Positions 7,563 through 48,520 of a DNA stretch of 64,000 nucleotides are shown piece after piece. Numbering within the stretch: the first letter of the stretch is position 1; each line of letters starts with the position of its first letter. This stretch comes from Alphaproteobacteria bacterium (GTDB lineage Bacteria > Pseudomonadota > Alphaproteobacteria > Micavibrionales > Micavibrionaceae), in NCBI GenBank assembly GCA_028282385.1, contig JANQIB010000098.1:4502-68501 (forward strand). Reading direction: 5' to 3'. Under the pieces are notes generated by a model. The model saw only the letters and a list, made by a program, of their open reading frames with translations. It did no database searches and was not told the origin of the DNA. The position numbers were made by a program, and so were the translations under genes.

Positions 7563-8444
7563 ATGAAATCTCATTCAACCCTTTTCCTGATCGGCCTGAT
7601 ATTGCTGGGCTGGAGCAGTTATTCGATGGCTGACACGCTCTCGAAATACCTGTCCGCAAGCTACACGATCCCGCAAATCCTGATGTCCACCAGCTTTCTT
7701 GGATCAATTTTTGCCGGAAGCTGGATTTTTCTCAAAAAAGGTTTCAGGGGTTTCATAACGCCAAAACTAAAATGGCATGTGATGAGGGGCTTCATCATTG
7801 TGATTATCTCTTATAGTATCGTTCACGCTTTTTCCCTTGCGCCCATGGCAGATGTATATGGCATTACATTTACATCTCCTTTTATCACCCTGATTCTGAT
7901 TTATTTTATTTTAAAGGAAAAGATTGGATTTCACAGATGGCTGGCCGTGTTTATAGGATTCACAGGCGCCTTCATTCTAGCGGGACCGCAATTTGAAACT
8001 TTGAGCATAGGCCTTATCTATGCCGCTATCTCATCTTTTTTTATAGCTGTCACAACAATCATCATCCGAAAAATCGGCAAGGAGGAATATCTCCCTTTAT
8101 ATCCGTTCTTTCCCCTCATATGCATTTTCTTGTTTAACGCACCGATGGCAGTACCTCACTTTATTATGCCTCAGGGCCTCGATATCCTTTTATTTTTAAT
8201 TCATGCCTGTGTCGTCATGGGCGGTCTTTTAATGGTGACCTATGCGATCGCCCATATTGAAGAAACAGCTATTCTCTCTCCGTTTATTTATATTCAGATC
8301 GTCTGGGGAACCGTATTCGGCATTTTCCTGTTCGGTGATATCCCAACTTGGACAACAATTTTGGGGCTCATCCTGATTATCGGTGCAGGACTCTATTCAA
8401 TCTGGCGCGAGCATGTTCACTACAAAGAAGATCACTCATTATAA
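7563..8444 (+). CDS. EamA/DMT family transporter
   Basis: 293 aa with about 10 predicted TM helices arranged as two EamA-like halves. Confidence 0.75.
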   Translation: MKSHSTLFLIGLILLGWSSYSMADTLSKYLSASYTIPQILMSTSFLGSIFAGSWIFLKKGFRGFITPKLKWHVMRGFIIVIISYSIVHAFSLAPMADVYGITFTSPFITLILIYFILKEKIGFHRWLAVFIGFTGAFILAGPQFETLSIGLIYAAISSFFIAVTTIIIRKIGKEEYLPLYPFFPLICIFLFNAPMAVPHFIMPQGLDILLFLIHACVVMGGLLMVTYAIAHIEETAILSPFIYIQIVWGTVFGIFLFGDIPTWTTILGLILIIGAGLYSIWREHVHYKEDHSL

Positions 8445-9007
8445 CCGGGCCGCGCCATTGTTACATTTGACATTTTTGTTCCATGTGGAACATGTTCTTC
8501 TTCAATCAAATAAGACTTTTTAAATAATTTTTTATCTTCACTACGCTTGTAAACATATATTCCAAGAACCGACAACCCGACTGCCCAGATTGCAGACAGG
8601 GAAGACATGCCCTGTAAAACCGAAGCTGCTTTATCTGTTTCAAAGATAACAACGTAAGCCAGTCCGAACATCTGCGCCGCCCAGGTAAAAGCCATAAGAT
8701 AGCCGAATGTTGGACGCATCCGCCGTACATAAGGATCGTTGGAGGCGACTTCAGCGCGCAAAGACTGATTAACCTCAGCAATACCCGCCTGACGTTCTTT
8801 CATCGCCAGCTCAGCCATCGCTTCCGCATGACGGTTCGCTTCGGCCATTTGCTCATTAGAAATCAACCCGCCCGCCAGCGCCGCATCAAGTTCGCCAAGC
8901 GCGCGGGCCGCACTTTGCGCCGCCGGATGATCAATTTTTCCAATGGAACGGCCGATAATATCAATAATAATCGGCAGGCCGACTTTTGCTAAAATAGATT
9001 CCAGCAT
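8432..9007 (-). CDS. 3-TM holin of the GTA-release type (DUF3154 / GTA_holin_3TM-like)
   Basis: 191 aa. N-terminal LPIIIDIIG, a helical middle, then AEVASNDPYVRRMRPTFGYLMAFTW followed by hydrophobic helices. It lies next to the endolysin. The stop overlaps the convergent eamA-like gene by 13 nt. Confidence 0.6.
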   Translation of the reverse strand: MLESILAKVGLPIIIDIIGRSIGKIDHPAAQSAARALGELDAALAGGLISNEQMAEANRHAEAMAELAMKERQAGIAEVNQSLRAEVASNDPYVRRMRPTFGYLMAFTWAAQMFGLAYVVIFETDKAASVLQGMSSLSAIWAVGLSVLGIYVYKRSEDKKLFKKSYLIEEEHVPHGTKMSNVTMARPGYNE

Positions 9008-9009
9008 GT

Positions 9010-9501
9010 TTATGCCTCCACTAACTTATAAAAAATATGCCGCCCAATAATTATGACCGGCTCTTCGCCTTCCGCCCAGTAAGGTGAAACATAATCCGCA
9101 TGATAATGCGTTGCCCCTTTTGTCCGGTCAGGTAGAACGTTATTGACGGCGCGCCGGGAAATTCGCTGGCAGGTTACAAATTTCTTATCCTGCTCCGTAA
9201 CCGCAATAAGCTTGCGGTAATTCGGATCAGATCTGTTCCAGCAGGAAAACTGATAAGGTTTCTGGCATACGCTAATAATGTCATTCCCCCACCAATATTT
9301 TCCACCGCGCGCCTGTGCAACGCGCACACGATTCAGCACGACACTGGCAACTGCTTCCATACCCTCCAGGCTTTCCGCGCGCGCCTCTCCCCAGATTGTC
9401 CGGGCAAGCACATCTACCGCAAGCTCATTATAAAAAGAGACAGACTCTACTTCATCCGCTTCTTCTTTCGTGAAGAGCGGTTTTAAAAACCGTATAACCA
9501 T
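9010..9501 (-). CDS. cell wall hydrolase, SleB/Hydrolase_2 family (endolysin)
   Basis: LARTIWGEARAESLEGMEAVASVVLNRV...CQKPYQFSCWN is the SleB-type signature. Confidence 0.8.
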   Translation of the reverse strand: MVIRFLKPLFTKEEADEVESVSFYNELAVDVLARTIWGEARAESLEGMEAVASVVLNRVRVAQARGGKYWWGNDIISVCQKPYQFSCWNRSDPNYRKLIAVTEQDKKFVTCQRISRRAVNNVLPDRTKGATHYHADYVSPYWAEGEEPVIIIGRHIFYKLVEA

Positions 9502-9849: not shown

Positions 9850-11340
9850 TTAGACTTCAAATTCCGTTTTAGCTGAGTGCATTTGTCCGCCGCCTTGCCA
9901 CTGAAGACGGTCCGTGTGATAACTTCGCTGAACACGCACAGATTGCTGGGACAGGGCACCAGCAACCGCATCAAGCCCATCATCCTTCTGCCCTTTAAGA
10001 CCAGGGCGCCAATCCTGCATTTCAGTTATAAAGGGCGTTTTGTAGACACGTTCATGTACATGCAGCGCGCGCGCAGCGAGCACCGCATCAAAACCTTCTA
10101 AAATACGCAAATCTTTTGCCCGTGATGAATTGACCTCTGTAACTGCGCACGGGACTTTTTGCTCTGCCATCTGCGTACGCAAAATGGCCGGCAAAAACTT
10201 TCCAATGCCGTTTGTTTCTACGGTAACCGAGGGAATAAAATGCTCCCGCGCAATTCGTGCCACCTGCATGGACTGACTTACCGCTTCTTCTTCAGCCAAA
10301 GCCGGATCGTGCCGTAAATAAACCAGATCATGTAAATAATACTGCCCGACTTCATCACAAAAAATCACAGCCAGAACGGACGCATCTCCTTTTGCGCTTC
10401 CAAAAGAAGGATCCCACCAGGCCGAACAAGACACGAGACGCCGCCCTTCCAAACGAAGCTGCAATGTCTGCTGACTTTCTGAGGATTGCAGCTGCGATCC
10501 GTAACGCCTGAGTAAATTCGGATCCAGGCGGCTTTCACTCACATTGAGCGGCTCCAACAACATTTGTGAGGCAAATTTTTGCGGACCTGTCTGCGTTTTT
10601 ATCTGCTTAATATCTTGAAGTGTAAATTTCTCAGGCCAGCTACTTTCTCCATCCTGATCAATCAGGGGGATAACAAGGCGCTTATAATCTTTTAAAAAAA
10701 TGTCTTCTATTCCAAGTTCCGGCTTTGGTGCATCAAGATAAATAGACTCCCATGTATGAGGTGTACCTAAATAAATCTGTACGCCGCCCGGAACAAGAAT
10801 ATAAGATGTCTCTTCAAGCCGTTCTCTAAGATCTTGCCGCTTCTCCGGAGTCTCGCATGTATTAGGAACCTCAACATCATCACAAATGATAATATCGGCC
10901 CGAAGTCCTGTAATATTGGAATGAATACCGCGCGCAATCACCGAAGGGTCACGCTGGACCTGCCCCCGCTTAACGGTCAGACGATCTGCCGCCCACTCCT
11001 CCTTTTTCTTCGGAATGAGAGGCTTCGTTAAAGGATGTGTCTGGATGATCTTGCGAATATTGCGGACCATCTTGGACGCCAGCGTCTGTTCGGCCGCTAA
11101 CACCAGGATACGCAAATCCGGATCCCTGTAGAGCAGCCATGCCGAGAACAGAGTGGTGAGCGACGACTTGCCGCTTCCGCGAAAGGCCTTCAGCAGTAGC
11201 CGCGTCTCTCCATGCGCCCAACACACTTCGAACCAGCGCGCGATTCTGAAGTGAATCAGGGGTGTTGAATAATTTTGTGTCCTGTTCCATAGCGCTAAGA
11301 ATACTCCAAAATCGACTTCTTTTGTAGTGTTTTTATCCAT
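9850..11340 (-). CDS. phage terminase large subunit
   Basis: 496 aa. Walker A is FRGSGKSS and Walker B is ADIIICDDVE, with a C-terminal RNaseH-like nuclease region (AWWDPSFGSAKGDASVLAV). Confidence 0.85.
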   Translation of the reverse strand: MDKNTTKEVDFGVFLALWNRTQNYSTPLIHFRIARWFEVCWAHGETRLLLKAFRGSGKSSLTTLFSAWLLYRDPDLRILVLAAEQTLASKMVRNIRKIIQTHPLTKPLIPKKKEEWAADRLTVKRGQVQRDPSVIARGIHSNITGLRADIIICDDVEVPNTCETPEKRQDLRERLEETSYILVPGGVQIYLGTPHTWESIYLDAPKPELGIEDIFLKDYKRLVIPLIDQDGESSWPEKFTLQDIKQIKTQTGPQKFASQMLLEPLNVSESRLDPNLLRRYGSQLQSSESQQTLQLRLEGRRLVSCSAWWDPSFGSAKGDASVLAVIFCDEVGQYYLHDLVYLRHDPALAEEEAVSQSMQVARIAREHFIPSVTVETNGIGKFLPAILRTQMAEQKVPCAVTEVNSSRAKDLRILEGFDAVLAARALHVHERVYKTPFITEMQDWRPGLKGQKDDGLDAVAGALSQQSVRVQRSYHTDRLQWQGGGQMHSAKTEFEV

Positions 11341-16246: not shown

Positions 16247-16654
16247 TTATTTTTCACGCTCAATAGCTTTATCGGCCTGCTCAAAGGTCGCAATGAACAA
16301 ATCTTTAAAATAAATTTTCAAATCTGCGACAATATCTGATTGAACATCTTCGACTGTACTATCTGGACTAGAATTATGCTCATACTTGTTTTGATAGACT
16401 TCTTCGGCATACCTACGAATATATTGATCGCATTCTTTTATGGAATATTTTAGAGACCGGTTTAAAAGCACATCACGGTCTACAATCTTCGCTAGATTGT
16501 CTGACATAAAATCAACGGCTTTTTCTTCTACACACAATAACGATTTCTGCCTATAACCAGTCATATAAATAAGATCAGGGCGCAAAATATGAATAAGCGC
16601 CATTGTGTAGATAAACAAAAAAATCATAAATATTGAAATGGATTTTTTATTCAT
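16247..16654 (-). CDS. small N-terminally anchored protein, partner of the 180-aa PG-binding protein (immunity-like candidate)
   Basis: 135 aa. The TM segment is ISIFMIFLFIYTMALIHIL. The start overlaps the upstream stop (ATGA-type coupling at 16651-16654). The region is AT-rich by eye. Confidence 0.4.
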   Translation of the reverse strand: MNKKSISIFMIFLFIYTMALIHILRPDLIYMTGYRQKSLLCVEEKAVDFMSDNLAKIVDRDVLLNRSLKYSIKECDQYIRRYAEEVYQNKYEHNSSPDSTVEDVQSDIVADLKIYFKDLFIATFEQADKAIEREK

Positions 16655-17193
16655 ATAACACCATCATCATTTTCTCTCTGATGTTTAATAATTTCTTCCA
16701 TAATCTTAAATTGAGGATTCAATTTTCCCCCACTTTTTAAGAAGTCAAAAATCTTCTTATGGTCTTTTAGTTGCTCTATAAGATCTTTGACTTTTTCATT
16801 ATCTTTTAGATTATCCATTGTTTCCTTTAGAGAATCAAAGAAATTATCATCCTTACCAAAATCCGGCTTTCTTTCCGGCAAAGGCGGTTTCGATGGCTTC
16901 TTTGGTGGAATGGGGGGAAGTTCAGATTCAGGTGTATCATCGCTTTGAGTTTGTTTTAACACTGTATTCAAAGCAACTTCTGTTTCCCCGCCGGGGTTCA
17001 TAATCCGGTCCGGTTTAAGATCATTGTCATACTGAAAAGCTAAAATCGCATCGTCGAGCTCCCGGTCGATAATCCCGTTTTCAACCGGGCGGTTATAATA
17101 GCCGGCCTTCGAAAAAGCCCGCTTTGCCTGCAATACGTCTTCATCATCATTCTCCAGGTTATTTCCGACAGGGCGGTTTATTTTAAAACGCAT
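16651..17193 (-). CDS. peptidoglycan-binding-module protein with a PPLPERKPDF junction and a short variable C-terminal domain
   Basis: 180 aa. PVGNNLENDDEDV...GYYNRP..GIIDRELDDAILAFQYDNDLKPDRIMNPGGETE is PG_binding_1-like and paralogous to modules in 21466..23475. Confidence 0.6.
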   Translation of the reverse strand: MRFKINRPVGNNLENDDEDVLQAKRAFSKAGYYNRPVENGIIDRELDDAILAFQYDNDLKPDRIMNPGGETEVALNTVLKQTQSDDTPESELPPIPPKKPSKPPLPERKPDFGKDDNFFDSLKETMDNLKDNEKVKDLIEQLKDHKKIFDFLKSGGKLNPQFKIMEEIIKHQRENDDGVI

Positions 17194-17838: not shown

Positions 17839-18243
17839 TTACGCTGCCAGCAAGGGTTCGTAACGTGGAGCGTTTTGCATTGAAGTTCCAAGGTTATAGT
17901 TTCCTGATCCCTCTCCTGCATGAGCTCGACGAAAATCCGTCATCATAAAATCTGCAACTTTAATCTGCGTAGTTTGCAAGTTTTGTGAATGCTCTTCTTT
18001 CACTTTTTCATTAGAATTAAGCATGTCATATACTGCCCATGCCTGTATTTCAGTGCCCCTAAAGACTGCTCCCTGAGGCGTATAAATAACATTCAAAATG
18101 CCGTGACGAGCAAAAGCTTCAGAAAGCTTTTCTGTTGGTTCTCTTTCTTCTTCAAAAGAAATATCTTCCGGACGCACACTGGCAGGAAACCCGCCGCTAT
18201 GCGGAATTGAATAATAACCCGTCTGCAATGCCTGCACAGACAT
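17839..18243 (-). CDS. hypothetical protein (moron-like, bracketed by terminators)
   Basis: 134-aa ORF with no recognisable motif. Confidence 0.4.
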   Translation of the reverse strand: MSVQALQTGYYSIPHSGGFPASVRPEDISFEEEREPTEKLSEAFARHGILNVIYTPQGAVFRGTEIQAWAVYDMLNSNEKVKEEHSQNLQTTQIKVADFMMTDFRRAHAGEGSGNYNLGTSMQNAPRYEPLLAA

Positions 18244-19926: not shown

Positions 19927-20313
19927 ATGTTTACATCCCTCGCACGCGTCCTGAAAACAAGGGACTTTGAAAATCAGGCATCGAACCGTCGCATCGCGCC
20001 CCGGCGTGAGGTCGACCAGTGCGTTGGCATGATTGAGGGCAAAAACTATCCGGTCGAAAACTGGAGCGATACGGGCATACTCTTTGCCGGTAACGATAAA
20101 CTCTTTTCAATCGGAGAACCAAAATCCATCGACCTGAAATTTAAACTTGCCGAAAAAGTGATTACAGTTTCGCACCGGGGTAAGATCGTCCGCAAAGCCA
20201 AAAATAAATTTGCGATCGAATTTGAACCTCTCACCCGTGATATTCAAAACAAATTTCAACAAATCGTCGACGATTTCGTCACCCAGGAATTTGCCGACTC
20301 TCAGATGGTTTAG
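19927..20313 (+). CDS. PilZ domain protein (c-di-GMP receptor candidate)
   Basis: 128 aa. RRIAPRRE fits the RxxxR motif and NWSDTG fits the D/NxSxxG motif with appropriate spacing. It is on the opposite strand to the phage genes and has an AT-rich upstream region. Confidence 0.7.
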   Translation: MFTSLARVLKTRDFENQASNRRIAPRREVDQCVGMIEGKNYPVENWSDTGILFAGNDKLFSIGEPKSIDLKFKLAEKVITVSHRGKIVRKAKNKFAIEFEPLTRDIQNKFQQIVDDFVTQEFADSQMV

Positions 20314-20536
20314 TTTCCTCTCTAATCATCCGTCCCGTGGCATCGAAGATTGGTTTTTCTTTTGGAAGAGGCGGCGTGTCTTCGCTTTCCTCAAACGCGA
20401 AAGTGCCGTTTGAAGTAAAGACGGAGTTGCTTTCACTGCGCTCAACCCTGCCCGTTTCGGCAGGACTATTGGCATCAGCTTGTTGTTTTGCCTTTAACGT
20501 TTCAAGCGCCCCAGCACCAGATGCCCCGGTCTTGTT
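20279..20536 (-). pseudogene. orphan fragment of the 669-aa gene (central region through PPLPKEKPIFDATGRMIR), without a start codon
   Basis: Hand translation gives NKTGASGAGALETLKAKQQADANSPAETGRVERSESNSVFTSNGTFAFEESEDTPPLPKEKPIFDATGRMIREETKPSESRQIPG*. It is preceded by an in-frame TAA and has no ATG. Confidence 0.8.
20322..20512. repeat. direct repeat copy A (191 bp, 8 mismatches versus copy B)
   Basis: Aligned by eye against 22160..22350. There are no indels and the offset is 1838 bp. Confidence 0.9.
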
Positions 20537-20566
20537 TTATACCTAATTATTACTTATTCTACATTT

Positions 20567-21007
20567 ATGTTCAGAATAATTTTTATTGCTCTTGTGTTTT
20601 TTTCTTCTGCTACGCAAGCTGCAGAAGATTTCTGGGACAAACCGCCACACCCTAACGGGTGGTATGGTTATGATGAAACACTCCCTGATCTGCTGAACAT
20701 CAAAGGCTTAACCTACCATGAGGCAAGGCCCATTATCATTGGTGCCGGCTGGGAACCATTGCAAACTCTTCAGGAGGGCACACATGATTACGAACAAGGT
20801 ATAACCCTGTCCGGAGATGGCCCAAAGTTTTGGAACAAAAGTTATTATGAACTGCAAACATGCACTGGATCAGGTATGGCATACTGTGCTTTTCTTTTCC
20901 AAAACAAAAATGGCGACCGGCTTCGTATCGTAACTAAATATGAAGAGCATGAAGAATATTCATCTTTTGCTAAAGTCGCAGGCTACAGATTTATGCCCCA
21001 AGACTAA
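20567..21007 (+). CDS. secreted hypothetical protein
   Basis: 146 aa with the signal peptide MFRIIFIALVFFSSATQAAE. The gene is AT-rich and on the opposite strand. Confidence 0.5.
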   Translation: MFRIIFIALVFFSSATQAAEDFWDKPPHPNGWYGYDETLPDLLNIKGLTYHEARPIIIGAGWEPLQTLQEGTHDYEQGITLSGDGPKFWNKSYYELQTCTGSGMAYCAFLFQNKNGDRLRIVTKYEEHEEYSSFAKVAGYRFMPQD

Positions 21008-21204
21008 TTTTTCTCCAGAAAATCCTTTAAAGTTTTGAAATCAGTCAGCGCTTTATTGTTTAAAACGCCATCATAACGACTTTTATTTGAAGCATCTGGT
21101 GGAAGTGATGCCCATTCACTGGCTAATTCTTCTATCAATTTTTTCGTGCTGATTTTACCGGATTTATATTTATCAAACCCTCTGTATTCCAAAAGCCTAT
21201 ACAC
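21004..21204 (-). CDS. small ORF resembling the C-terminal part of a lambda-R-type (GH104) lytic transglycosylase; probably a gene remnant
   Basis: LASEWASLPPDASNKSRYDG..NKALTDFKTLKDFLE compared with lambda R CSNIWASLPGAGYGQFEHKADSLIAKFKEAGG. The N-terminal catalytic part is absent. Confidence 0.3.
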   Translation of the reverse strand: MYRLLEYRGFDKYKSGKISTKKLIEELASEWASLPPDASNKSRYDGVLNNKALTDFKTLKDFLEKN

Positions 21205-21252
21205 TTCATATCTTTGATAAAAAAGACAGCCTAAAAATCAGCGGTACACTTT

Positions 21253-21453
21253 CTAGTAAGCTAAAAACAATCCCACAACTATTGCTAAAACCATAAGGCT
21301 CAGAATACATCCGGTAAAGGCTCCTAGAAAAACACCTCGCCAAACAGGTTCCTGTTTCCTTGCAAAAGAAACACAACCGACTAACGCCCCTACAACCATC
21401 AAGAAGAAGAGAAAGAAAGCCGTTAACATTTCAATATCAAAAGAGCCATCCAT
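21253..21453 (-). CDS. two-TM small membrane protein directly downstream of the 669-aa gene (immunity-like candidate)
   Basis: 66 aa with two hydrophobic helices (FFLFFLMVVGALVGCVSF and GAFTGCILSLMVLAIVVGLFLAY). The gap after the upstream stop is 12 nt. Confidence 0.45.
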   Translation of the reverse strand: MDGSFDIEMLTAFFLFFLMVVGALVGCVSFARKQEPVWRGVFLGAFTGCILSLMVLAIVVGLFLAY

Positions 21454-21465
21454 ATTCTGAAACCC

Positions 21466-23475
21466 TTATTTGTTTTCTTCAGCATCCTCCCATGTTAGTC
21501 TTGGATTTACAAGCTCGCCTCCTTTGATCTGGACAGTACCTGTCACTTTTTGTTGCCATTGAGAGTTTATATCAAAACTTTTTGCGCGCCCTTCTTTTTC
21601 AAGAATGGTGGCCCCTCCTCCTCCACTTTGCAAAGGGTCAAAATTGTATTTATCTGTCCATTGATGAGTGACCGTACCATCAATCAAAATAGTATTTCCT
21701 TTTCTTTTTACTTTAAAGTCACCTCCAGACTTAACAGAACTTGTTCCTGTTGCCAAAGCTTCATCCAAATCCCCCTTCAAAAGATGACTTCTGGATAGAT
21801 CTGCATTACGAATCATCGTTTTAATTGGAAAATTTCCAACTTTATAATCCCAATTATCTTTCACTTCCATTACTTCATCCTCTTTCATATTTAACAATTT
21901 AGAGCCTATACCTTTCTTGTCTGTGAAAGATTTTGTGAATCTATCTCGGTTAACTCTTTCTCCATTACGCACAAAAAGCTTTTCACGAACCTGATCTCGA
22001 CTAAGCGCCTTATCTTCTCCTGATCCGTCTAAAAAATGCTCCAGATTATCTGCCGCTTCATTTAAACCTTTTTTATGTCCTTGATCTACATATTCTCTAT
22101 AAACATTTTCAATTGTGTCCAAATATTTTTCTTTATCGTAGCCTCCAAGCTCCTCCTTCCTAATCATCCTTCCCGTAGCATCGAAGATTGGTTTTTCCTT
22201 TGGAAGAGGCGGCGTGTCTTCGCTTTTCTCAAACGCGAAAGTGCTGTTTGACGTGAAGACGGAGTTGCTTTCACTGCGCTCAACCCTGCCCGTTTCGGCA
22301 AGACTATTGGCATCAGCTTGTTGTTTTGCCTTTAACGTTTCAAGCGCCCCGGACGGTCCGCCCGTTTCACCGCCGCCGTCAAACAGGCCAGACGCCGCAC
22401 TGCCCAAACTCCCGGCCAGCCCCTGCGCCGCCTGTGCCCCCGATGCAACGGCAGGCAGGATTTCATTGATTTTGGTCAGCACATCACCGTCGCTCTCCAG
22501 AGCGTCTTTCGTATTAAAGAAAGCCTGCGTGCCGCTTAAGGCCTGGGATGCAATCCCGGCAATCGGCCCGCCAACCGCGCTCAATCCCATCGAAACAACA
22601 GGCGCAAAGGCGTTAATCTTATCCGCTGTTGAACCTTCACCTTTAACGGCATCGATAACACCTTTAACAAAAGACGCAGCTTGAGCAAAAGCTTGCTGTG
22701 TTTTTTCCTCGCCTTGCAGGCGCATAACATTTTTTATAGCTTCAATACCCTGCTCCGTCTCACCGCCCGGGTGAACCAGTCCATCCTCTTTCAGACCCAG
22801 TTGACGTTGAATATTCTTAATAGCATCGCTCGTTTCCCGGTCAAGAAAGCCTGTCGGGTCACTGAGTTTATCTTTTGGCAAAAGTCCAAACTCTCCCAGC
22901 CTGCCCTGAAGGCCGATCACATCACGCTTGCCATTTTCAAGGTTATTTCCAACAGGACCTAAAAGTATGGGTTCCCTGACATTTATCAGGATATCGTCAT
23001 CTTCTTCAAAACCATTTTCCGGCTCACGTGGGAGATAACCGTTTTCTAAAATACGATCATACCAACCAGTAATACCTTCATCCAAATCATCATCTTGTTT
23101 TTCCATGGTGCGCAACGGTGGTGGTTTATCCGTATCAAGCATAATTGAATGATGTGGCTCATCGAATTGTGTAGATTCGTCTGCCTCAAGTGTCTGCATT
23201 GTCTCCCCATCTGGCTTGATGATCCCGTCAACTTTCAAGCCCTTATCTTTTTGATATTGTTTGATACCATCGAACAGTGCTTCGTCCGTATAGGGCGTGA
23301 TGCCGTAATCGGGGAGATCGTAATAACCGCGCGAGCGTAAAGCGTCTTTAATTTTCAAAACATCTCTACCGCGCGCCGCGCTATTGGAAGAAATAATATT
23401 ACTTATTCTTAACATTGAAAAAAACCTCTTAAAAAAATCCCCCGCGCAGGGAATGCGCGAGGGGAAGTTGCTCAT
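21466..23475 (-). CDS. modular protein: two peptidoglycan-binding modules, a Gly/Ala-rich region, a PPLPKEKPIF junction and a ~230-aa C-terminal domain of unknown function
   Basis: 669-aa ORF. An AAGAGG Shine-Dalgarno favours the internal ATG at 23415 (649 aa). The PG_binding_1-like segments are GRDVLKIKDALRSRGYYDLPDYGI..ALFDGIKQYQKDKGLKVDGIIKPDGET and PVGNNLENGKRDVIGLQGRLGEFG...SDAIKNIQRQLGLKEDGLVHPGGETE. Confidence 0.65.
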   Translation of the reverse strand: MSNFPSRIPCAGDFFKRFFSMLRISNIISSNSAARGRDVLKIKDALRSRGYYDLPDYGITPYTDEALFDGIKQYQKDKGLKVDGIIKPDGETMQTLEADESTQFDEPHHSIMLDTDKPPPLRTMEKQDDDLDEGITGWYDRILENGYLPREPENGFEEDDDILINVREPILLGPVGNNLENGKRDVIGLQGRLGEFGLLPKDKLSDPTGFLDRETSDAIKNIQRQLGLKEDGLVHPGGETEQGIEAIKNVMRLQGEEKTQQAFAQAASFVKGVIDAVKGEGSTADKINAFAPVVSMGLSAVGGPIAGIASQALSGTQAFFNTKDALESDGDVLTKINEILPAVASGAQAAQGLAGSLGSAASGLFDGGGETGGPSGALETLKAKQQADANSLAETGRVERSESNSVFTSNSTFAFEKSEDTPPLPKEKPIFDATGRMIRKEELGGYDKEKYLDTIENVYREYVDQGHKKGLNEAADNLEHFLDGSGEDKALSRDQVREKLFVRNGERVNRDRFTKSFTDKKGIGSKLLNMKEDEVMEVKDNWDYKVGNFPIKTMIRNADLSRSHLLKGDLDEALATGTSSVKSGGDFKVKRKGNTILIDGTVTHQWTDKYNFDPLQSGGGGATILEKEGRAKSFDINSQWQQKVTGTVQIKGGELVNPRLTWEDAEENK
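22160..22350. repeat. direct repeat copy B (inside the 669-aa gene, codons ~375-439)
   Basis: See copy A at 20322..20512. Confidence 0.9.
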
Positions 23476-23480
23476 GAAAA

Positions 23481-24116
23481 TTAACTATAGAGTTTCTGGA
23501 AGCCTTCTGTGACCTTGGCAATGAAAGACGGATCTTTATCTCTCCAGTAACGCGGATCGCGCATCATCGATTGCAAGTCGAGCTCGGCGCCGTCTGGGCC
23601 ACTTTCGCCTTTAGAAGTCTCTAGACCAGGCTCCTCACCCTTCATCATATTATGAAGTGCGAGTATGCCCTCAAAGGAGCTGGCCAACGTATCGAGGACA
23701 TCCTCAGGCAGTTGTTTTTGACCAAAGGCTAAAAGCTGCCGTGACATTTCAGCCCATTTTTCGGGCCCACCAAAATGGTTGACAAGTTTTTCAATTTCCC
23801 GGTCAGCTTCGTAATCGGAAGCCATTTGAACAATCATCGGCACCATTTTTTCTGCTGCCAAATCGTAGATAAACTGCACTTGATCTTGGGTAAATCCTTT
23901 CTGATGAAGCCGTTCATTCAACTCCTCATCAGCATCAAACAGACCGTGCTTACAATCCACACAATATTCTTTGGCGCTTTTGGGAGGCCGGGGCTGACGT
24001 GAAAATCTCTGTTCAAGTTCGTTATAAGATTTTACAAGGTTATCAAGATTTACATTACCTGTTTCCGGATCTTTAAACTTTTCCGGAACAGAAGTTTCTA
24101 AAAGTGTTTCAGTCAT
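23481..24116 (-). CDS. capsid assembly scaffolding protein
   Basis: 211 aa. VPEKFKDPETGNVNLDNLVKSYNELE is the typical podovirus scaffold N-terminus. The protein is acidic and helical and lies downstream of the portal gene. Confidence 0.65.
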   Translation of the reverse strand: MTETLLETSVPEKFKDPETGNVNLDNLVKSYNELEQRFSRQPRPPKSAKEYCVDCKHGLFDADEELNERLHQKGFTQDQVQFIYDLAAEKMVPMIVQMASDYEADREIEKLVNHFGGPEKWAEMSRQLLAFGQKQLPEDVLDTLASSFEGILALHNMMKGEEPGLETSKGESGPDGAELDLQSMMRDPRYWRDKDPSFIAKVTEGFQKLYS

Positions 24117-27258: not shown

Positions 27259-27906
27259 ATGCTAACACACGAAAATATCTGGACTGCAATTGACCGTTTA
27301 GCGGCAAGCTTTGGGTATTCTGCCTCCGGTCTTGCAAAACAGGCAGGACTTGACCCCACCTCTTTTAACAAAAGTAAACGAATAAGCCCTGAAGGCAAAC
27401 CCAGATGGCCTTCTACAGAAAGTATATCGCGTATTCTAACTGCCACAGGCGCAACGATGAATGATTTCATAGCACTCATCGATTCTGACGCCAGTACTCA
27501 TTCAAATAAAGCGGAACAAACCCTTCCGCTTATTCATTTTACACAGACCAAACAAAAAGAAGTTTTTGATAAAAACGGAAACCCAACCGGAGATTTATGG
27601 GACCATGTACAATTCCCGGATATGGAGATGAATAAGACTAATATTTTTGCCATTGAAGTAAGTGGTAATTCACTGATGCCGCTATACCGGAACGGAGATA
27701 TTCTGATCGTTTCTCCAAACGCCCCTATCCGTCGCGGTGACCGTATTGTGATAAGAAACGCAAAAGGAGTTCTCTCTGTTCAGGAGGTGCTTAAAAAGCA
27801 AGCCCGGAAACTTGATCTAAAATCTGTTTGCGCAAAGAAAAAAACCATATCATACACATCAAAAGATATTGACTGGACCGCACGCATTCTCTGGGTTAGT
27901 CAATAA
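27259..27906 (+). CDS. HTH plus S24 (LexA/CI-like) peptidase-domain repressor
   Basis: 215 aa. The N-terminus is IWTAIDRLAASFGYSASGLAKQAGLDPTSFNKSKR (HTH). The C-terminus is IFAIEVSGNSLMPLYRNGDILIVSP...GDRIVIR....VQEVLKK (S24 Ser/Lys pattern). Confidence 0.8.
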   Translation: MLTHENIWTAIDRLAASFGYSASGLAKQAGLDPTSFNKSKRISPEGKPRWPSTESISRILTATGATMNDFIALIDSDASTHSNKAEQTLPLIHFTQTKQKEVFDKNGNPTGDLWDHVQFPDMEMNKTNIFAIEVSGNSLMPLYRNGDILIVSPNAPIRRGDRIVIRNAKGVLSVQEVLKKQARKLDLKSVCAKKKTISYTSKDIDWTARILWVSQ

Positions 27907-42800: not shown

Positions 42801-45059
42801 CTACTTTGTTTTAGCTTCAAAAACCCCGTCCCAGTCATCAGGTGGCGGGGTTTTCAAATAATCTCCAATCCGTCCTGAAAACAGATCATAATAACCTTGC
42901 AGCATGTCACCAGCTAATTCACGTGCCTCTTTCAAATCCTGGGCAGCACAGTCAAAATCACCAGCCCGATAAGCTGCCAGCATGCCCTCATGCGCTGTTT
43001 TCCACTTTAAATAGGAAGGGTCTTTCGCATATATTTCATTGCCAAGCAGCGTATAAATTCTGGCCGGCTGTTCTTTTCCTTTAACCTTGATCAGATCCAG
43101 TTCCAGAAAAGCCAGATCTTTTGCAGCTTTAACTGTCTCTTCGCCAACTAGTACCTGAACACCATAAGCTTTCGTTTGCCCTTCCAAGCGGGAGGCCAAA
43201 TTTACAGCATCCCCAAGGGCCGAATAGGCAAAACGCTGACGGGATCCCATATTTCCAACACTACACGGGCCGGTATTAATTCCAATACCCGCGTTTAAAA
43301 GAACAGCATTTTGGCCTGTCTCTTGCGCTTTCTTTTTTATGGCCTCATTAATCGGCACCAAAGCCTCATTCATGCGCAGCGCACTTAGACAAGCATTGCG
43401 GGCATGATGAGAATCCTCAAGTGGTGCATTCCAAAACGCCATCATGGCATCACCCATATATTTATCAATCGTTCCCCTGTTTTCCATGACCAAGTCAGAC
43501 ATAGGCGTTAGAAAATCATTCATCAGCTGAATAAGCTCTTCAGGACTTAAACTTTCTGAAATCGTTGTAAAACTCCTTATATCGGTAAACATCACCGTTA
43601 AATCACGAACTTCACCACCCAGTTTCAATTTGTCCGGGTTATTTTCCAGTTCTTCCATAAAGTCAGGAGAAATATAAAGCCCGAAAGCCTCCCGCACCTG
43701 TTTTCGCTCAGATTCAATTCTAAGATAACTCAACAAGGACGAAACCAGAAAAAGAGCAGAAAGAGAAATGCTGGGATAAACAGGATCAAGCAATAATCCC
43801 ATTTGAGTATAAAAATTCCAGGACCCGAAAAACATCCCTCCCATCATCAGAAGGGCAAAGAAACCAAGCCAGATCACACTGACAAACGGGGCCAGTAAAA
43901 TAATCAATAAACCTGCGCCGGCGATAATCAACGCCTCGACACCGACAATCAAATCCGGGCGTTGTAAAAATTTACCTTGTAAGATTTGTTCAACAACATT
44001 GACGTGAACCTCAACCCCCGGAACAAAAATGTCCAGAGGTGTTGACCGTATATCCCGTAAACCTTCTGCGCTCGTCCCAACAAAAACAATCTTGTCTTGG
44101 ATTTTATCCCGCACCTCTTTTCTTGCACTTTCATCATAAAGCTTCCAGGCTGGGATATATTCATCGTCAGAAATATGGCGATAATACACCCAGAGTTTTG
44201 AATTTCTTTCGACAGGGATTTCATACTCGGATAAAGAAATAAGATAATCCGTATCGAAAATTTTCTTATTTTTTCTCTGCTTAACCAGAAAACGCGCCTT
44301 TGGATCCACATGAACACGCAGCGCTTCAATTCCTAACATCGGATAAAGAGTCGAATTATATTCTTCAGTATTCTCCGGCGGAAACTTAACAAGAAGTGAG
44401 ACTTCACGAATAAGACCGTCAATATCGGGCGTTGCCATAAAGCTTCCATTTCCAGCTGCAGCTTGTGAAAACTCAGGAAGATTAGTTGCCACCCCAGGTG
44501 CTGCAAAAGAATATTCTTCAAAAGGTGTTTTATCCTTAAGCAAAAAAGTTGGCTTAACGTTTTGATATGGCGCCCTTAAAGTTTCTCCCGGTTTTGCGCG
44601 GGTAAATCCTGTGACAACATTACCAGCGTCCCTGATAGACTCTGCAAAAAGCTGATCGTGTGCAGGAAGCGCCAAAAGACTATTTTTTATTTCTTCAAAA
44701 TTATTAACTTCACGAAAGTGATGAACAACGCTTTCAGGAGATGTTCTGTCCTTTTCTGCAAAGACAACATCAAATGCAATAGAGCTGGCGCCCATTTCTG
44801 CCAATTCGTCTACCATTTGGGCCATAACATTTCTGGGCCATGGAAACTGACCCATTTTTTTTAACGATTCCTCATCAATATCTATGATAACGATCTGATC
44901 ACTCTTTTCTCTGGGATAGAGCTGATTGAATGTATCAAATGTTACATATTGAAGACGCTTTCTTAGCTCAGAATCAGAACCACTAAAAACAACGCAGGCA
45001 ACCAAAAGTACGAGTAATATAAGAAAATGGAACCAGCGATTTACCAGAATATTAGTCAT
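42801..45059 (-). CDS. CHASE2 sensor domain plus class III adenylate/guanylate cyclase
   Basis: 752 aa. An N-terminal TM and periplasmic CHASE2-like region (IVIIDIDEESL..FPWPR) are followed by 3 TM helices, then LTVMFTDIRSFTTISE, GDAMMAFWNAP, IGINTGPCSVGNMGS and YSALGDAVNLASRLEG. Confidence 0.85.
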   Translation of the reverse strand: MTNILVNRWFHFLILLVLLVACVVFSGSDSELRKRLQYVTFDTFNQLYPREKSDQIVIIDIDEESLKKMGQFPWPRNVMAQMVDELAEMGASSIAFDVVFAEKDRTSPESVVHHFREVNNFEEIKNSLLALPAHDQLFAESIRDAGNVVTGFTRAKPGETLRAPYQNVKPTFLLKDKTPFEEYSFAAPGVATNLPEFSQAAAGNGSFMATPDIDGLIREVSLLVKFPPENTEEYNSTLYPMLGIEALRVHVDPKARFLVKQRKNKKIFDTDYLISLSEYEIPVERNSKLWVYYRHISDDEYIPAWKLYDESARKEVRDKIQDKIVFVGTSAEGLRDIRSTPLDIFVPGVEVHVNVVEQILQGKFLQRPDLIVGVEALIIAGAGLLIILLAPFVSVIWLGFFALLMMGGMFFGSWNFYTQMGLLLDPVYPSISLSALFLVSSLLSYLRIESERKQVREAFGLYISPDFMEELENNPDKLKLGGEVRDLTVMFTDIRSFTTISESLSPEELIQLMNDFLTPMSDLVMENRGTIDKYMGDAMMAFWNAPLEDSHHARNACLSALRMNEALVPINEAIKKKAQETGQNAVLLNAGIGINTGPCSVGNMGSRQRFAYSALGDAVNLASRLEGQTKAYGVQVLVGEETVKAAKDLAFLELDLIKVKGKEQPARIYTLLGNEIYAKDPSYLKWKTAHEGMLAAYRAGDFDCAAQDLKEARELAGDMLQGYYDLFSGRIGDYLKTPPPDDWDGVFEAKTK

Positions 45060-45065
45060 GAGATA

Positions 45066-46382
45066 TTAGCGCTCCGTAAAAGCCCTGTCACGCGCGCGTA
45101 AAATCGGTTTAAGCAAATATTCTAAAATTGTCCGTTTACCCGTTATAACTTCCGTTTCGGCAACCATGCCCGGTGTTATCGGCATTTTATTTTTCTCATT
45201 GCCCATATAATTCTTATCGCTACGCACTTCTATTTCAAAAAAGATATTCCCTTCCCGATCTGTCACGCTATTTGCCCCGATGCGCGTAAGTTTGCCCTCC
45301 AAAGACCCATAACGCTGCGGATCGTAAGCTGTAATTTTAACTTTTACATCTTGGCCAGTCCGCAAAAAACCAATTTCATGGGGCGCAACCTTTGCCATTA
45401 TTTTTAACTCATCATCCAAAGGAACAATTTCAACAAGCCTCATTGCCGGCTCAACAACCCCACCCTTCGTTTTGAGCATGATTTTATTGACAACACCGCG
45501 AACCGGACTACGTAATTCTGTTCTGAAAACACGGTCTCCAATCGCTGTGAGGCTTTCTTCAAGCTGGCTGATCTGTGTTTCAACCTCATTCAATTCTCCC
45601 AGCGCCTGAGATTTAAACTTTGTTTCTCTGTCTTCACGTTCTTTTTTGGCGCCGCGCAGTTCTGCTTCTAAAGCACCTCTTCTTTGAACAGCTTCACTGA
45701 TTTGCCCGGATACATCATTCACTTCCCGGCGCAATCGTATTTCTTCCAGCTCAGGAACGGCACGCTTTCTCACCATCTCGGCAGTTATCTTAAGCTCTTT
45801 TTGCAAGGAAGAACGATTGCTGGACAATCTTGAGATTTTGGCTCTTACCTCAGCCAATTCAGATTGAGCACGGCTGATATTATTATCCAAAATAGACATC
45901 GCGTTTTTAAGTTCCTGCTGCCGTGATCTATATAAATTTTCTTCGTTCCGCGCAATCTCAGGCGCATTTTCTTTTATGTTTTCCGGCAATACGAAGTCGG
46001 ATCCATTTGCTTCCGCTTCCAGCCTGACGCGCTTGGCTTTTAAAGCATAGCTACGCGCTTCTGTTCCACGCTCTTCAGAGGCAAACGCAACGTCACTGAT
46101 CCGCATTAGAATCTGATCTTTTTCGACAATCTCGCCTTCCTGAACATTGAGCTCTGCAAGAATCCCCCCCTCTAAACTTTGAACAATCTGGATCTCACTT
46201 GTCGGCACAACCTGCCCCATGCCGCGCGTAATTTGCTCAACTTTGGAAAACCCTGCCCAGACAAAAAAGAAAACAACAAGCGCCAGAACGGAAAACAACA
46301 TCAGAAGAGACGCCAGCGAAGGTTTCAGGTTCGCCGCTGCCTCCAATTCATTCATAAAATCTGTGTCTTTTCTGTTTTGCAT
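45066..46382 (-). CDS. HlyD-family type I secretion membrane fusion protein
   Basis: 438 aa with an N-terminal TM, a long coiled coil and a C-terminal beta-barrel, ending ITGKRTILEYLLKPI. Confidence 0.85.
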   Translation of the reverse strand: MQNRKDTDFMNELEAAANLKPSLASLLMLFSVLALVVFFFVWAGFSKVEQITRGMGQVVPTSEIQIVQSLEGGILAELNVQEGEIVEKDQILMRISDVAFASEERGTEARSYALKAKRVRLEAEANGSDFVLPENIKENAPEIARNEENLYRSRQQELKNAMSILDNNISRAQSELAEVRAKISRLSSNRSSLQKELKITAEMVRKRAVPELEEIRLRREVNDVSGQISEAVQRRGALEAELRGAKKEREDRETKFKSQALGELNEVETQISQLEESLTAIGDRVFRTELRSPVRGVVNKIMLKTKGGVVEPAMRLVEIVPLDDELKIMAKVAPHEIGFLRTGQDVKVKITAYDPQRYGSLEGKLTRIGANSVTDREGNIFFEIEVRSDKNYMGNEKNKMPITPGMVAETEVITGKRTILEYLLKPILRARDRAFTER

Positions 46383-48520
46383 TACGTGTCTTTTGGAACT
46401 TCAATCCCTTGCTTGCTTAGCGCTTTTAAAACCTCATCGCGTTTCCCGTCTAAAACCACTCTTCCCTGATCCATTAAAATCAGGCGCTCAACTAGCGGTA
46501 AAAGCTGAAAACGATGTGTAATAAGGATAAGTGTTTTGCCCTTAGTTTGGTCAAAAAGATGTTTTGTAAAAGCCGTTTCAGCCTGTACATCCATCGCATT
46601 TGTCGGTTCATCACAAATATAGATTGAGGGATCCAGCAGCATTGCCCGCGCGAGCGCGATAGATTGCCGCTGCCCGCCGCTTAAACCTTCGCCGCGCTCA
46701 CCCACCGGAGCATCATACCCCATAGGATGCTGGGAAATAAAATCATGAACGCCAGATAGTCTTGATACTCGTAATACATCCTCTTCACTGGCATGTGGCA
46801 TACTGGCGGTAATATTGTCACGGACCGTCCCGCTAAATAAAACAACATCCTGGGAGATATAGCCTGTATTGCGCCTTAGATCGGCCGGGTCAATTTGTTT
46901 ATAATCCGTTTCATCATATAAAACGGTTCCCTCTTCAGGCTCATAAAGCCCAACCATCAACCTGGCAAGTGTACTTTTCCCTGAGCCAATCCTGCCGATT
47001 ACACCGATTTTTTCTCCCGGACCAATAGAAAAGCTGACATGATCTAAAACTTTGCGGCCTGCATTTGGATAAGAAAAAGACACATTTTTAAACGCGATCT
47101 GTCCCTTTAGGTCAGGACGATGAAGAAACTGTATTTCCGCCGGGCGCTCAACAGGCTGTGCCATAATTCCGTTTAATGTTTTTAAAGCAGACTTTGCACC
47201 ATGATACCGACTCATCAAGTTTGCCACCTGGCCGATTGGGGCTATGGCCCGACTTCCAAGCATAACGCAAGCAATGAGTCCGCCCATGGTCAGATTTTGA
47301 TCTTTAACAAGATACATGCCTGTTAAAACAACCAGGATTGAGGCAATTTGCTGTAGAAAAGTTGCCGCATTCACACCCAACGCAGATATAAAACGTGATT
47401 TCTGTCCATAAGCCGCGTTCTCACCAATATATTGCCCATAGCGAGCACGGAGCTTTCCTTCCGCTCCAATTGCTTTTAAAGTTTCTAAACCGGAGATTGT
47501 TTCAACCAACAAACCGTGTTTTGCTTCGGAAGATTTTGTTGCTTTACGAACAACGGATTTTAAAGGGGCTTGAAGCATGACGCCGATCGCAAAAACAATT
47601 ACAATCAAACAAAATAGAAGCAATGCAATGGATCCGCCAATGAGCCAAATGATAAACAAAAAGAAAAGAGCAAATGGAAGATCGACAATCGCCGTTAATG
47701 TTGCCGAAGTATAAAAATCCCTGACCGTATCGAACTCCCGCAGCATGTTTGCAAAAGCGCCACTTGAAGCCGGACGAAAAGCCAACCTCATATTTAAAAG
47801 TTGATCATAAATCCGCCGCGCCGCAATCACATCTGCCTTGCGACCGGCAAGGTCGATAAAATATCCACGCAGTGTGCGCATTAAAAAATCAAAAGAAAAT
47901 ACCGTTAAAGCACCAACTCCTAAAACCCAACCGGTTTCCAGCGCATTGTTGGGAATAACGCGGTCATACACATTCATAATAAAAATCGGGCTGGTCAAAG
48001 CAAACAGATTGATGAGCACAGAGGCTATCGCCACATTCCTATAAAGTGGTTTTGATTGCAAAACAGGACCCCAGAACCAATGCTGACCGGCCTCTTGATT
48101 CTCTTCATTTGTTTTTCCTGAGAAATCAGCGCGTGGATGAACCAATATACAATAACCGTCATATCGACTCTGCAGATCAGTTAAGGATAAAGAGCTTTTC
48201 TGCTGCCCTTCCGGAGACCAGATAATTGCTTCACCCTCGCTTTGCTCCAGAAGAACACAGGCTTCATTTCCCTTTAAAATTAAAACAGCCGGCAAAACTG
48301 CATTCTGAAGTTTTTTTATATTCTCACGATGGGTTATCTTGCTTTTAAGACCTATTTTATCAGCCGCTTCACAAAATAGGTTTGGTCCCATATTTTTTTC
48401 ATCATACGGCAAACCTGCTGTTAATGATGGCGCAGAACGAGCCTTCCCGTAATGACCCGTAAGGAAGACAAGGCATTCTAGTAATGGGTCTCCTTGATGC
48501 TTGTCTGTTGAATCGTTCAT
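46382..48520 (-). CDS. type I secretion ABC transporter (permease/ATPase) with an N-terminal C39-like domain
   Basis: 712 aa. Walker A is GRIGSGKST, the signature is LSGGQRQ and Walker B is IYICDEPT. The N-terminal ~130 aa are C39-like. The start and stop overlap the neighbouring genes. Confidence 0.85.
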   Translation of the reverse strand: MNDSTDKHQGDPLLECLVFLTGHYGKARSAPSLTAGLPYDEKNMGPNLFCEAADKIGLKSKITHRENIKKLQNAVLPAVLILKGNEACVLLEQSEGEAIIWSPEGQQKSSLSLTDLQSRYDGYCILVHPRADFSGKTNEENQEAGQHWFWGPVLQSKPLYRNVAIASVLINLFALTSPIFIMNVYDRVIPNNALETGWVLGVGALTVFSFDFLMRTLRGYFIDLAGRKADVIAARRIYDQLLNMRLAFRPASSGAFANMLREFDTVRDFYTSATLTAIVDLPFALFFLFIIWLIGGSIALLLFCLIVIVFAIGVMLQAPLKSVVRKATKSSEAKHGLLVETISGLETLKAIGAEGKLRARYGQYIGENAAYGQKSRFISALGVNAATFLQQIASILVVLTGMYLVKDQNLTMGGLIACVMLGSRAIAPIGQVANLMSRYHGAKSALKTLNGIMAQPVERPAEIQFLHRPDLKGQIAFKNVSFSYPNAGRKVLDHVSFSIGPGEKIGVIGRIGSGKSTLARLMVGLYEPEEGTVLYDETDYKQIDPADLRRNTGYISQDVVLFSGTVRDNITASMPHASEEDVLRVSRLSGVHDFISQHPMGYDAPVGERGEGLSGGQRQSIALARAMLLDPSIYICDEPTNAMDVQAETAFTKHLFDQTKGKTLILITHRFQLLPLVERLILMDQGRVVLDGKRDEVLKALSKQGIEVPKDT

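Follow-up and report, generated by a model that had tools for sequence, protein, structure and literature searches.

Within the window, the whole 64,000-nucleotide stretch of the alphaproteobacterial contig JANQIB010000098.1 analysed here, a minus-strand gene set of the T7/BPP-1 type forms an element of about 20 kb, and its head region, as recognised by Pfam and PHROGs matches, contains a variable locus built around one large gene (hereafter the main gene). The product of this gene comprises, in order, two PG_binding_1 domains, which are the sole domain type returned by a Pfam scan, a Gly/Ala-rich helical region, an arm of about 64 residues that carries a junction peptide, and a C-terminal domain designated CT1. 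Along the direction of transcription, the front part of the gene is followed by the arm (copy B of a direct repeat), CT1, a small gene for a partner protein with two transmembrane (TM) segments, and the last 63 codons of a second C-terminal domain, CT2. Then come an intact CT2 partner gene on the opposite strand, a 54-nt spacer, a second copy of the arm (copy A) and the 3' end of a PilZ-domain gene (Table 1). These features are considered here as the probable footprint of cassette exchange at a putative toxin/immunity locus.

The original prediction described the main gene as encoding 669 amino acids, which is indeed the longest open reading frame (ORF), but the real gene is very probably 649 codons long. 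This shorter form is favoured because a terminator-like hairpin and an AAGAGG ribosome-binding site precede ATG 23415. The hairpin (23463-23439; 10 bp, eight of them GC pairs, followed by a T-run) lies directly after the stop codon of the scaffold gene and falls, with respect to the 669-aa ORF, within its first 12 codons. The ribosome-binding site is located 9 nt ahead of the ATG. In addition, the 649-aa form is identical to the database protein P0001, and its start agrees with the N-terminus of the related protein P0002. The main gene is likely to be transcriptionally insulated from the scaffold gene by the hairpin. Its Gly/Ala-rich region gave an AlphaFold2 (AF2) model with a pLDDT of 45, which is unusable, and a word-based homologue search with this region returned nothing.

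Table 1. Features of the variable locus and its host element, in coordinates of the window.
Feature	Position	Strand	Basis or remark
Main gene	21466..23475 (longest ORF, 669 aa); probable start ATG 23415 (649 aa)	-	Pfam; alignment with P0001-P0005
PG_binding_1 domains, two	~23194-23373 and ~22750-22953	-	Pfam, E 6e-16 in two stretches
Gly/Ala-rich helical middle region, conserved	~22351-22695	-	
Repeat copy B, homology arm within main gene	22160..22350	-	Encodes GALETLKAKQQ...PPLPKEKPIFDATGRMIR
Junction motif KPIFDATGRMIR	22159..22194	-	Invariant alignment columns; degenerate DNA motif
CT1, current C-terminal domain, ~230 aa	21466..22158	-	No Pfam model; profile search, AF2
66-aa two-TM protein, putative CT1 immunity partner	21253..21453	-	Two hydrophobic segments; starts 12 nt past CT1 stop
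CT2 remnant (lambda-lysozyme-like tail), 66-aa ORF	21004..21204	-	Homology 21010-21198, last ~63 codons
146-aa protein with signal peptide, putative periplasmic immunity protein of CT2	20567..21007	+	Similarity, hydropathy
Repeat copy A, start-less arm and junction without C-terminal domain	20322..20512	-	Open frame 20279-20536
PilZ-domain gene	19927..20313	+	Pfam PilZ; distal boundary of variable locus
T7/BPP-1-like element, ~20 kb	8432-28591		
S24 repressor-like gene	27259-27906		Other end of element
Portal gene, PF12236	24412-25944	-	
Bbp19-like gene	Between portal and scaffold	-	
T7-type scaffold gene	23481-24116	-	
Capsid gene, PF19821	18765-19607	-	
Tail tubular A and B, gp14-like, pectate-lyase-type spike, large terminase	After capsid, in order	-	
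Second AT-rich cargo insertion	16247..17193	-	Between tail tubular A and B; 36.7% GC
Hydrolase_2 gene and GTA_holin_3TM gene, lysis pair	8432-9501		

Between positions 18000 and 25000, the longest direct repeat returned by a repeat finder pairs 20316-20512 with 22154-22350 (197 nt, 95% identity, offset 1838), the remaining repeat families in this interval being just 22-24 nt in length with 79-82% identity. Base-by-base comparison of 20322-20512 with 22160-22350 gave 191 bp without indels and with eight mismatches (at 20332, 20339, 20360, 20389, 20407, 20414, 20417 and 20463), so that the repeat which had been proposed from inspection of the DNA was reproduced exactly by both methods. Its edges are sharp, with identity falling to background within a few bases on either side. 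Copy B is in frame with the main gene, corresponding to codons 376-439 of the 669-aa ORF and ending in ...PPLPKEKPIFDATGRMIR, that is, at the junction. Copy A, as had been claimed, is start-less and encodes the same peptide up to a stop against the 3' end of the PilZ gene: its frame is closed by stops at 20537-20539 and 20279-20281, its sole in-frame start codon is the ATG of 'MIR', and its peptide is that of copy B with three substitutions, followed by EETKPSESRQIPG*. The convergent PilZ gene ends at 20313, and five codons past MIR copy A enters the antisense of that gene's final codons. The expectation that the segment between the repeats is richer in AT was also borne out, with a GC content of 38.6% in comparison to about 50% in the arms, 48.8% in the 5' part of the main gene and 45% in the phage-like element, and everything listed for it was found: besides the current C-terminal domain and the lysozyme-like remnant, it holds the 66-aa ORF with two TM segments and the signal-peptide ORF of 146 aa. 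The product predicted for a deletion between the arms (N-terminal flank, 185-197 nt and PilZ flank) had no matches in public metagenome contigs.

A search of 5.8 billion proteins returned five relatives of the main protein with 28-65% identity, and further loci, all from uncultured Alphaproteobacteria, were gathered by scanning one genome per species. In the alignment of the relatives, the peptide FDATGRM(I/M)R does not vary, and ahead of it lies a KP motif rich in proline and lysine, giving the junction consensus KPxFDATGRMIR; right after it the sequences are unrelated. The FDATGRM core is unchanged in all relatives despite many synonymous differences. The window has two occurrences of a degenerate DNA motif for FDATGRM where 0.05 would be expected, and the motif is also found in 13 related loci. 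The homologues share their N-terminal region and bear at least seven tail types past the junction (from the alignment and the ORFs of loci L006, L009 and L056): CT1, a CT1 paralogue, the lysozyme-like CT2, Phage_lysozyme (GH24), GH108, an SLT-like domain and DUF6973. Among the database relatives, CT1 is the tail of P0002, as it is in the window; the tail of P0003 is SLT-like, that of P0004 is CT2 and that of P0005 is a GH24 phage lysozyme. CT2 is related to lambda lysozyme, the full-length domain matching 1am7 with an E-value of 0.013.

The main gene with downstream orphan arms, tails and partners recurs in four independent assemblies (L001, L006, L009 and L056). The element of L001 matches that of the window and occupies the same chromosomal site, and its main gene encodes P0002, which is followed by a 71-aa two-TM gene. 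Further downstream lies an orphan 218-aa GH108 ORF that begins with the M of ...EPVFDATGRMIR and has kept junction DNA upstream, and after it a convergent gene for a secreted partner. The densest case is L006 (JAOUOR010000036.1, 1-14536), a 14.5-kb array of modules that flanks the scaffold gene on both sides and ends at PilZ, with at least seven tail/partner modules and two tail-less stubs. In these modules an SLT-like tail comes with a multi-TM partner, a CT1 paralogue with a TM partner, a GH24 tail with a secreted one and CT1 with a two-TM partner of 66 aa; for CT2 there are two secreted partners, for a GH108 tail a convergent secreted one, and for a second SLT-like tail TM partners. The modules are preceded by arm repeats 131-300 nt in length, some of them 92-96% identical, and within arrays in general the arm copies are 80-96% identical in DNA. 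The degenerate junction motif is found twice in L001, six times on a single strand in L006, and twice in L009 together with an LDATGRMIR variant. The PKPFGEEAIKKKL linker is present eight times in L006.

An all-against-all comparison of the small neighbouring genes revealed that they cluster by the type of the accompanying tail and not by locus. A separate partner family goes with each of the GH108, GH24 and SLT-like tails, and the partner proteins gave no Pfam or NCBIfam family. A two-TM family of 66-71 aa directly follows CT1 in five loci (the window, L001, L006, L009 and L080), the last of which is a non-phage locus adjoining ABC-transporter permease genes, and the family of the 146-aa protein is found beside CT2 in four loci (the window, L002, L006 with two copies, and L043), in either orientation. 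Relatives thus carry other content past the same junction together with co-varying partner genes, and orphans appear in independent assemblies, which upholds the cassette-exchange footprint put forward in the original prediction; a plain duplication with no variable content after the junction, named there as the finding that would speak against it, is the opposite of what the relatives display.

CT1 has no match in Pfam, NCBIfam or, by sequence profile search, the PDB. A profile search of 1.84 billion cluster representatives nevertheless returned 814 at E<=1e-3 and 118 at E<=1e-30, and among the 814 the domain is almost always located at the extreme C-terminus. Within this large family (CT1 of the window and P0008-P0155), the sampled carriers are headed by RHS_repeat with SpvB (2645 aa) or by eCIS_core, the latter named for extracellular contractile injection systems (eCIS). 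Rhs and eCIS_core fronts are standard chassis of polymorphic, injected toxins. Conserved motifs of CT1 include AADNLEHFLDGSG and a Y-D-F-D segment, and in its AF2 model (pLDDT 80.6, pTM 0.70) helices at the N-terminus pack against a sheet whose strands are long and antiparallel. Foldseek searches with this model against the PDB and BFVD found nothing significant (best E-values 0.13 and 0.005, TM-scores of at most 0.3); the weak top matches are beta-pore-forming toxins and were not counted as evidence. From its distribution, CT1 is a putative toxin-type domain common to Rhs and eCIS-core proteins, and the 66-aa two-TM protein that follows it probably neutralises it. The membrane-embedded partner gives only a hint of an envelope target for CT1.

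The locus also preserves part of an earlier tail. The CT2 remnant is 60% identical to residues 690-752 of P0004, and upstream of it in its frame nothing resembles CT2, the frame there being unrelated, while the 146-aa protein beside it is 68% identical to the product of a 141-aa gene convergent with that of P0004. Because both the remnant and its partner match the P0004 locus, an older CT2 module appears to have lost its first two-thirds as CT1 and the CT1 partner entered. The claim that an old 3' end had been displaced can therefore be kept for the lysozyme-like remnant, which would be the truly displaced tail, but not for copy A, which retains no old C-terminal domain and runs into PilZ antisense. 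At least two successive events seem to be recorded, either in the window genome or in a donor array. A degraded stub, ...EKPIFNASSG*K*LSKPSVSRQIP, lies against PilZ at 13221-13277 in L001, and its presence at the orthologous site implies that the copy A stub predates the split of the two genomes. Copy A is 96% identical to the active arm, having either stayed similar to it or been converted back. Two histories may be envisaged: a composite cassette (arm, CT1, partner, truncated CT2 and its partner) would have been excised from a donor array and inserted by a single crossover with duplication of the arm, or two successive events would have taken place in situ.

In combination, these observations suggest, with a probability of roughly three in four, that the locus is a polymorphic toxin/immunity system with cassette exchange, belonging to a family not described before; no literature description of the family, the junction or the host element turned up. 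Among the features by which polymorphic toxins are generically defined (PMC3482391), orphan cassettes are present (the GH108 orphan of L001, the six junctions of L006, and copy A with the CT2 remnant in the window), as are a C-terminal domain common to other delivery systems (CT1 on RHS_repeat/SpvB and eCIS_core proteins) and, at the level of linkage only, a tail-specific small adjacent gene; a recognisable secretion or trafficking module was not seen. In the proposed mechanism, the protein would consist of a constant front (both PG_binding_1 domains, the Gly/Ala helical region and the arm) and an exchangeable C-terminal effector after KPxFDATGRMIR. New tails would arrive as cassettes of arm, tail and partner gene that recombine with the resident gene via the arm, so that the older tail is shifted downstream or partly deleted, and the CT2 partner may have been kept as an orphan immunity gene. 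The direct repeat flanking the cassette could be the outcome of a single crossover by a circularised cassette or of unequal exchange between arrays, and if the two arms recombined, the entire 1838 bp would be lost, leaving a tail-less protein. Partners placed in the periplasm or membrane would fit only an effector that reaches the envelope of a sister cell from outside, in keeping with the established logic of effectors and immunity proteins in type VI secretion systems (T6SS).

Apart from anchoring recombination, the junction peptide probably has a function of its own, for example in processing or docking, because it is conserved at the protein level through synonymous changes and forms a natural C-terminus in L055. 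There, at 9870-10370, a 166-aa ORF with a different N-terminal domain ends in ...KRKPVFDATGRMIRD* directly before the spike gene. A metagenome search for further junction-bearing loci recovered only the contig of L006, and the 22 matches of the junction DNA motif in IMG/VR are all unrelated (for example, tape-measure proteins with FFDATGRMKPL). Four IMG/VR loci (L058, L060, L061 and L069) encode tape-measure-like proteins with ...LG(L/I)(D/E/S)FFDATGRMK(P/D)L..., and the heptapeptide in these proteins is probably a coincidence.

Several points weigh against the toxin/immunity interpretation. The main protein has no signal peptide or known trafficking domain by hydropathy and Pfam, which leaves its export unexplained, and markers of the type V, VI and VII secretion systems (T5SS, T6SS and T7SS) and of MuF are absent from it in Pfam, PHROGs and NCBIfam scans; its sole hydrophobic stretch is a glycine-zipper-like segment at residues 287-311. 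Neither Foldseek nor profile search against the PDB gave CT1 a recognisable fold or active site. Most of the alternative tails are peptidoglycan hydrolases, which are also tools of phages for entry and lysis. Homology between modules of L006 runs about 150 nt beyond the junction, indicating that the junction is not always the breakpoint. Furthermore, an imported composite cassette and two events in place fit the order of features equally well. Lastly, the family is rare, all relatives come from metagenome assemblies, and the window contig could have been misassembled across the 191-bp repeat.

The main rival explanation, judged unlikely, is that the main gene encodes a structural or ejection protein of a phage-like particle, which would open the target wall during DNA delivery in the manner of T7 gp16 or phiKMV gp36. 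An arms race would then account for the diversity of tails, and lysogens would produce the partners as inhibitors that keep related particles out (superinfection exclusion), with the repeat still a cassette scar but the system serving the phage and not warfare between bacteria. Such an entry lysin would agree with the predominance of hydrolase tails and with the occurrence of PG_binding_1-headed genes inside the T7/BPP-1-like element, where they are found in at least 12 loci and at least six positions (behind Bbp19, scaffold, the small protein downstream of capsid, tubular B or the spike, or between tubular A and B). The element also has a gp14-like protein and no recognisable gp15 or gp16, and its separate lysis genes mean that the main protein is not needed for lysis. 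However, CT1 is not a detectable hydrolase and is common to Rhs and eCIS toxins, and past the PG-binding domain Pfam and PHROGs found no similarity of the main protein to known internal virion proteins. P0003, P0004, P0005 and P0006 lie outside head/tail modules, and within the element the PG_binding_1-headed genes shift position like accessory cargo, whereas core genes do not. The terminator and the gene's own ribosome-binding site, which part it from the scaffold gene, likewise count against this rival.

The element's own lysis pair bears on another alternative, scarcely credible, in which the main gene and the two-TM ORF are the endolysin and class II holin of the element. N-terminal matches of the main protein to PHROGs 'endolysin' families, the small two-TM protein directly downstream, and the relatives with GH24, GH108 or SLT tails would suit this identity, but the PHROG matches are confined to the PG-binding domain, CT1, which Rhs and eCIS proteins also carry, shows no hydrolase signature, the two-TM protein comes after CT1 in the non-phage L080 as well, and other tails pair with signal-peptide secreted proteins instead of holin-like ones. 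The identity was rejected because the element already has Hydrolase_2 and GTA_holin_3TM. It is also very improbable that the repeat has no biological role, being an assembly chimera that joins strain variants via the 191 bp or a neutral segmental duplication. The window probably derives from a metagenome-assembled genome (MAG), P0001 is known from a single 70-kb NCBI contig, and no deletion variant was found among public metagenome contigs. The repeat exceeds typical assembly k-mers, yet such a sequence can mis-join strain variants. Against a chimera stand the like architecture in the independent assemblies L001, L006, L009 and L056 and the degraded stub at the orthologous PilZ-proximal site of L001, and the interval between the arms duplicates nothing, consisting of distinct cassette genes of lower GC content.

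The toxin/immunity system would reside in an element whose own nature bears on delivery. No integrase, replication genes, gp15 or gp16 were seen in the element, which occupies one chromosomal site in distantly related MAGs (the window, L001, L040, L044 and L048, including an uncultured Micavibrio sp.). On one side of it lie NAD kinase, a gene of 240 aa and the S24 repressor, on the other the holin, EamA and NhaA, and the flanking genes are only 41-76% identical, a divergence about like that of the element's proteins. The element looks vertically inherited or domesticated, similar to a gene transfer agent (GTA) or viriform, and not like a normal prophage. In at least eight loci (L001, L006, L040, L041, L044, L048, L052 and L055), the PilZ gene lies between scaffold and capsid; a c-di-GMP receptor amid a head module is unusual. 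The second AT-rich insertion encodes a 180-aa PG_binding_1 protein (PPLPERKPDF linker, short tail) and a 135-aa partner anchored in the membrane at its N-terminus, is missing at the matching position of L001, and probably represents one more cargo module from the same superfamily, lacking the FDATGRM junction.

The preferred guess for delivery, though more likely wrong than right, is release with or inside particles of the phage-like element. The many positions at which PG_binding_1-headed genes are lodged in this element, in at least 12 loci, speak for a link to particles, as does the second such insertion of the window at 16247-17193. The placement of P0003, P0004, P0005 and P0006 outside any head/tail module counts against a link to particles, and the terminator-bounded expression signals of the main gene weigh in the same direction. 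A bolder proposal, to be regarded as doubtful, is that the element is a vertically inherited, domesticated, particle-making viriform of Micavibrio-related Alphaproteobacteria, whose podovirus-derived capsid particles would carry polymorphic envelope-targeting toxins to neighbouring cells. The PG_binding_1-headed proteins would then be exchangeable payload and kin would be protected by cassette-encoded immunity proteins. If true, this route would be distinct from T5SS, T6SS, T7SS, eCIS, tailocins and MuF. Elsewhere in the window, the 42801-50103 region contains a type I secretion set (an HlyD-type protein at 45066-46382, a C39-peptidase ABC transporter at 46382-48520 and an outer-membrane factor at 48520-50103), which adjoins a CHASE2-cyclase gene and a 1107-aa FecR/FG-GAP protein. 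A link of the toxin locus to the type I secretion genes at 45066-50103 was considered and set aside, there being no supporting feature.

Cassette shuffling itself is ordinary for polymorphic toxins; what is new is the family, the junction, the CT1 domain and the host element. The repertoire of polymorphic toxins would gain a carrier family, a junction motif and at least one widespread, unannotated domain of putative toxin type (CT1). The carriers are uncultured Alphaproteobacteria with small genomes, in which bacterial antagonism is almost unstudied. The locus would be a good model for the turnover of such loci, since it would show serial cassette displacement with unusual clarity: a module that is active, an older toxin that is truncated but lies next to its intact immunity gene, and an arm that is empty. 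In addition, modules housed in a phage-derived element that is conserved and has no replication or integration genes raise the prospect that phage-like particles carry or release toxins.

Known systems share parts of this arrangement. Podovirus virion lysins include T7 gp16, with an N-terminal transglycosylase, and phiKMV gp36, with a C-terminal lysozyme. They resemble the window family in placing a cell-wall-degrading domain on a large protein amid T7-like structural genes, but the main protein has no similarity to them beyond the generic PG-binding domain in Pfam and PHROGs. No virion lysin is known to be polymorphic at a fixed junction, or to come with tail-specific partners or orphan arrays. 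In the T6SS, the Tae/Tai and Tge/Tgi pairs combine lysozyme or transglycosylase effectors with small secreted or membrane immunity proteins, and orphan immunity genes are kept. The window family likewise pairs hydrolase-type tails with small secreted or membrane partners and keeps an orphan partner, but no T6SS genes, PAAR, VgrG or MIX were seen in the window or the related loci, and its putative effectors are fused to a PG-binding carrier.

MuF proteins of temperate phages are polymorphic toxins whose genes, with a small ORF downstream, lie where prophages or prophage remnants encode head morphogenesis, and delivery by packaging in the capsid has been proposed (Jamet et al. 2017, PMC5576092; Zhang et al. 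2012, PMC3482391). The window locus is also found in a phage head region and its putative toxin gene also has a small downstream ORF. Unlike MuF loci, however, it lacks a MuF (SPP1 gp7-like) domain by Pfam and PHROGs, its element is podovirus-like (T7/BPP-1 type), and its gene comes third after the portal gene (portal, Bbp19, scaffold, toxin) behind a terminator-like hairpin, with some relatives outside phage modules altogether. Orphan arrays are a further difference, the word 'orphan' being absent from the main text of PMC5576092. As for the front of the protein, in Zhang et al. (PMC3482391) PGB1 figures only as an occasional adhesion domain in toxin polypeptides.

The closest parallel in genetic logic is with contact-dependent inhibition (CDI) and Rhs loci, to which the original prediction had likened the footprint. 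In both, a short, conserved peptide motif (CdiA, VENN; Rhs, DPxGL) marks the point where an unchanging N-terminal body gives way to a toxin that varies at the C-terminus, a cognate immunity gene lies beside the toxin, and downstream orphans keep upstream homology that enables recombination. The likeness holds at this level but does not extend to family membership, as Pfam detects no CdiA/CdiB or Rhs features. In contrast to CDI loci, the window gene has no haemagglutinin/FHA repeats, CdiB or VENN by Pfam and its neighbours are phage structural genes; in contrast to Rhs, its protein has no RHS_repeat match or DPxGL autoproteolytic junction, and only distant carriers of CT1 have RHS. Instead, the window family is characterised by the KPxFDATGRMIR junction, a PG_binding_1 N-terminus and a phage-like host element, with many tails that are cell-wall hydrolases and partner genes that are often convergent.

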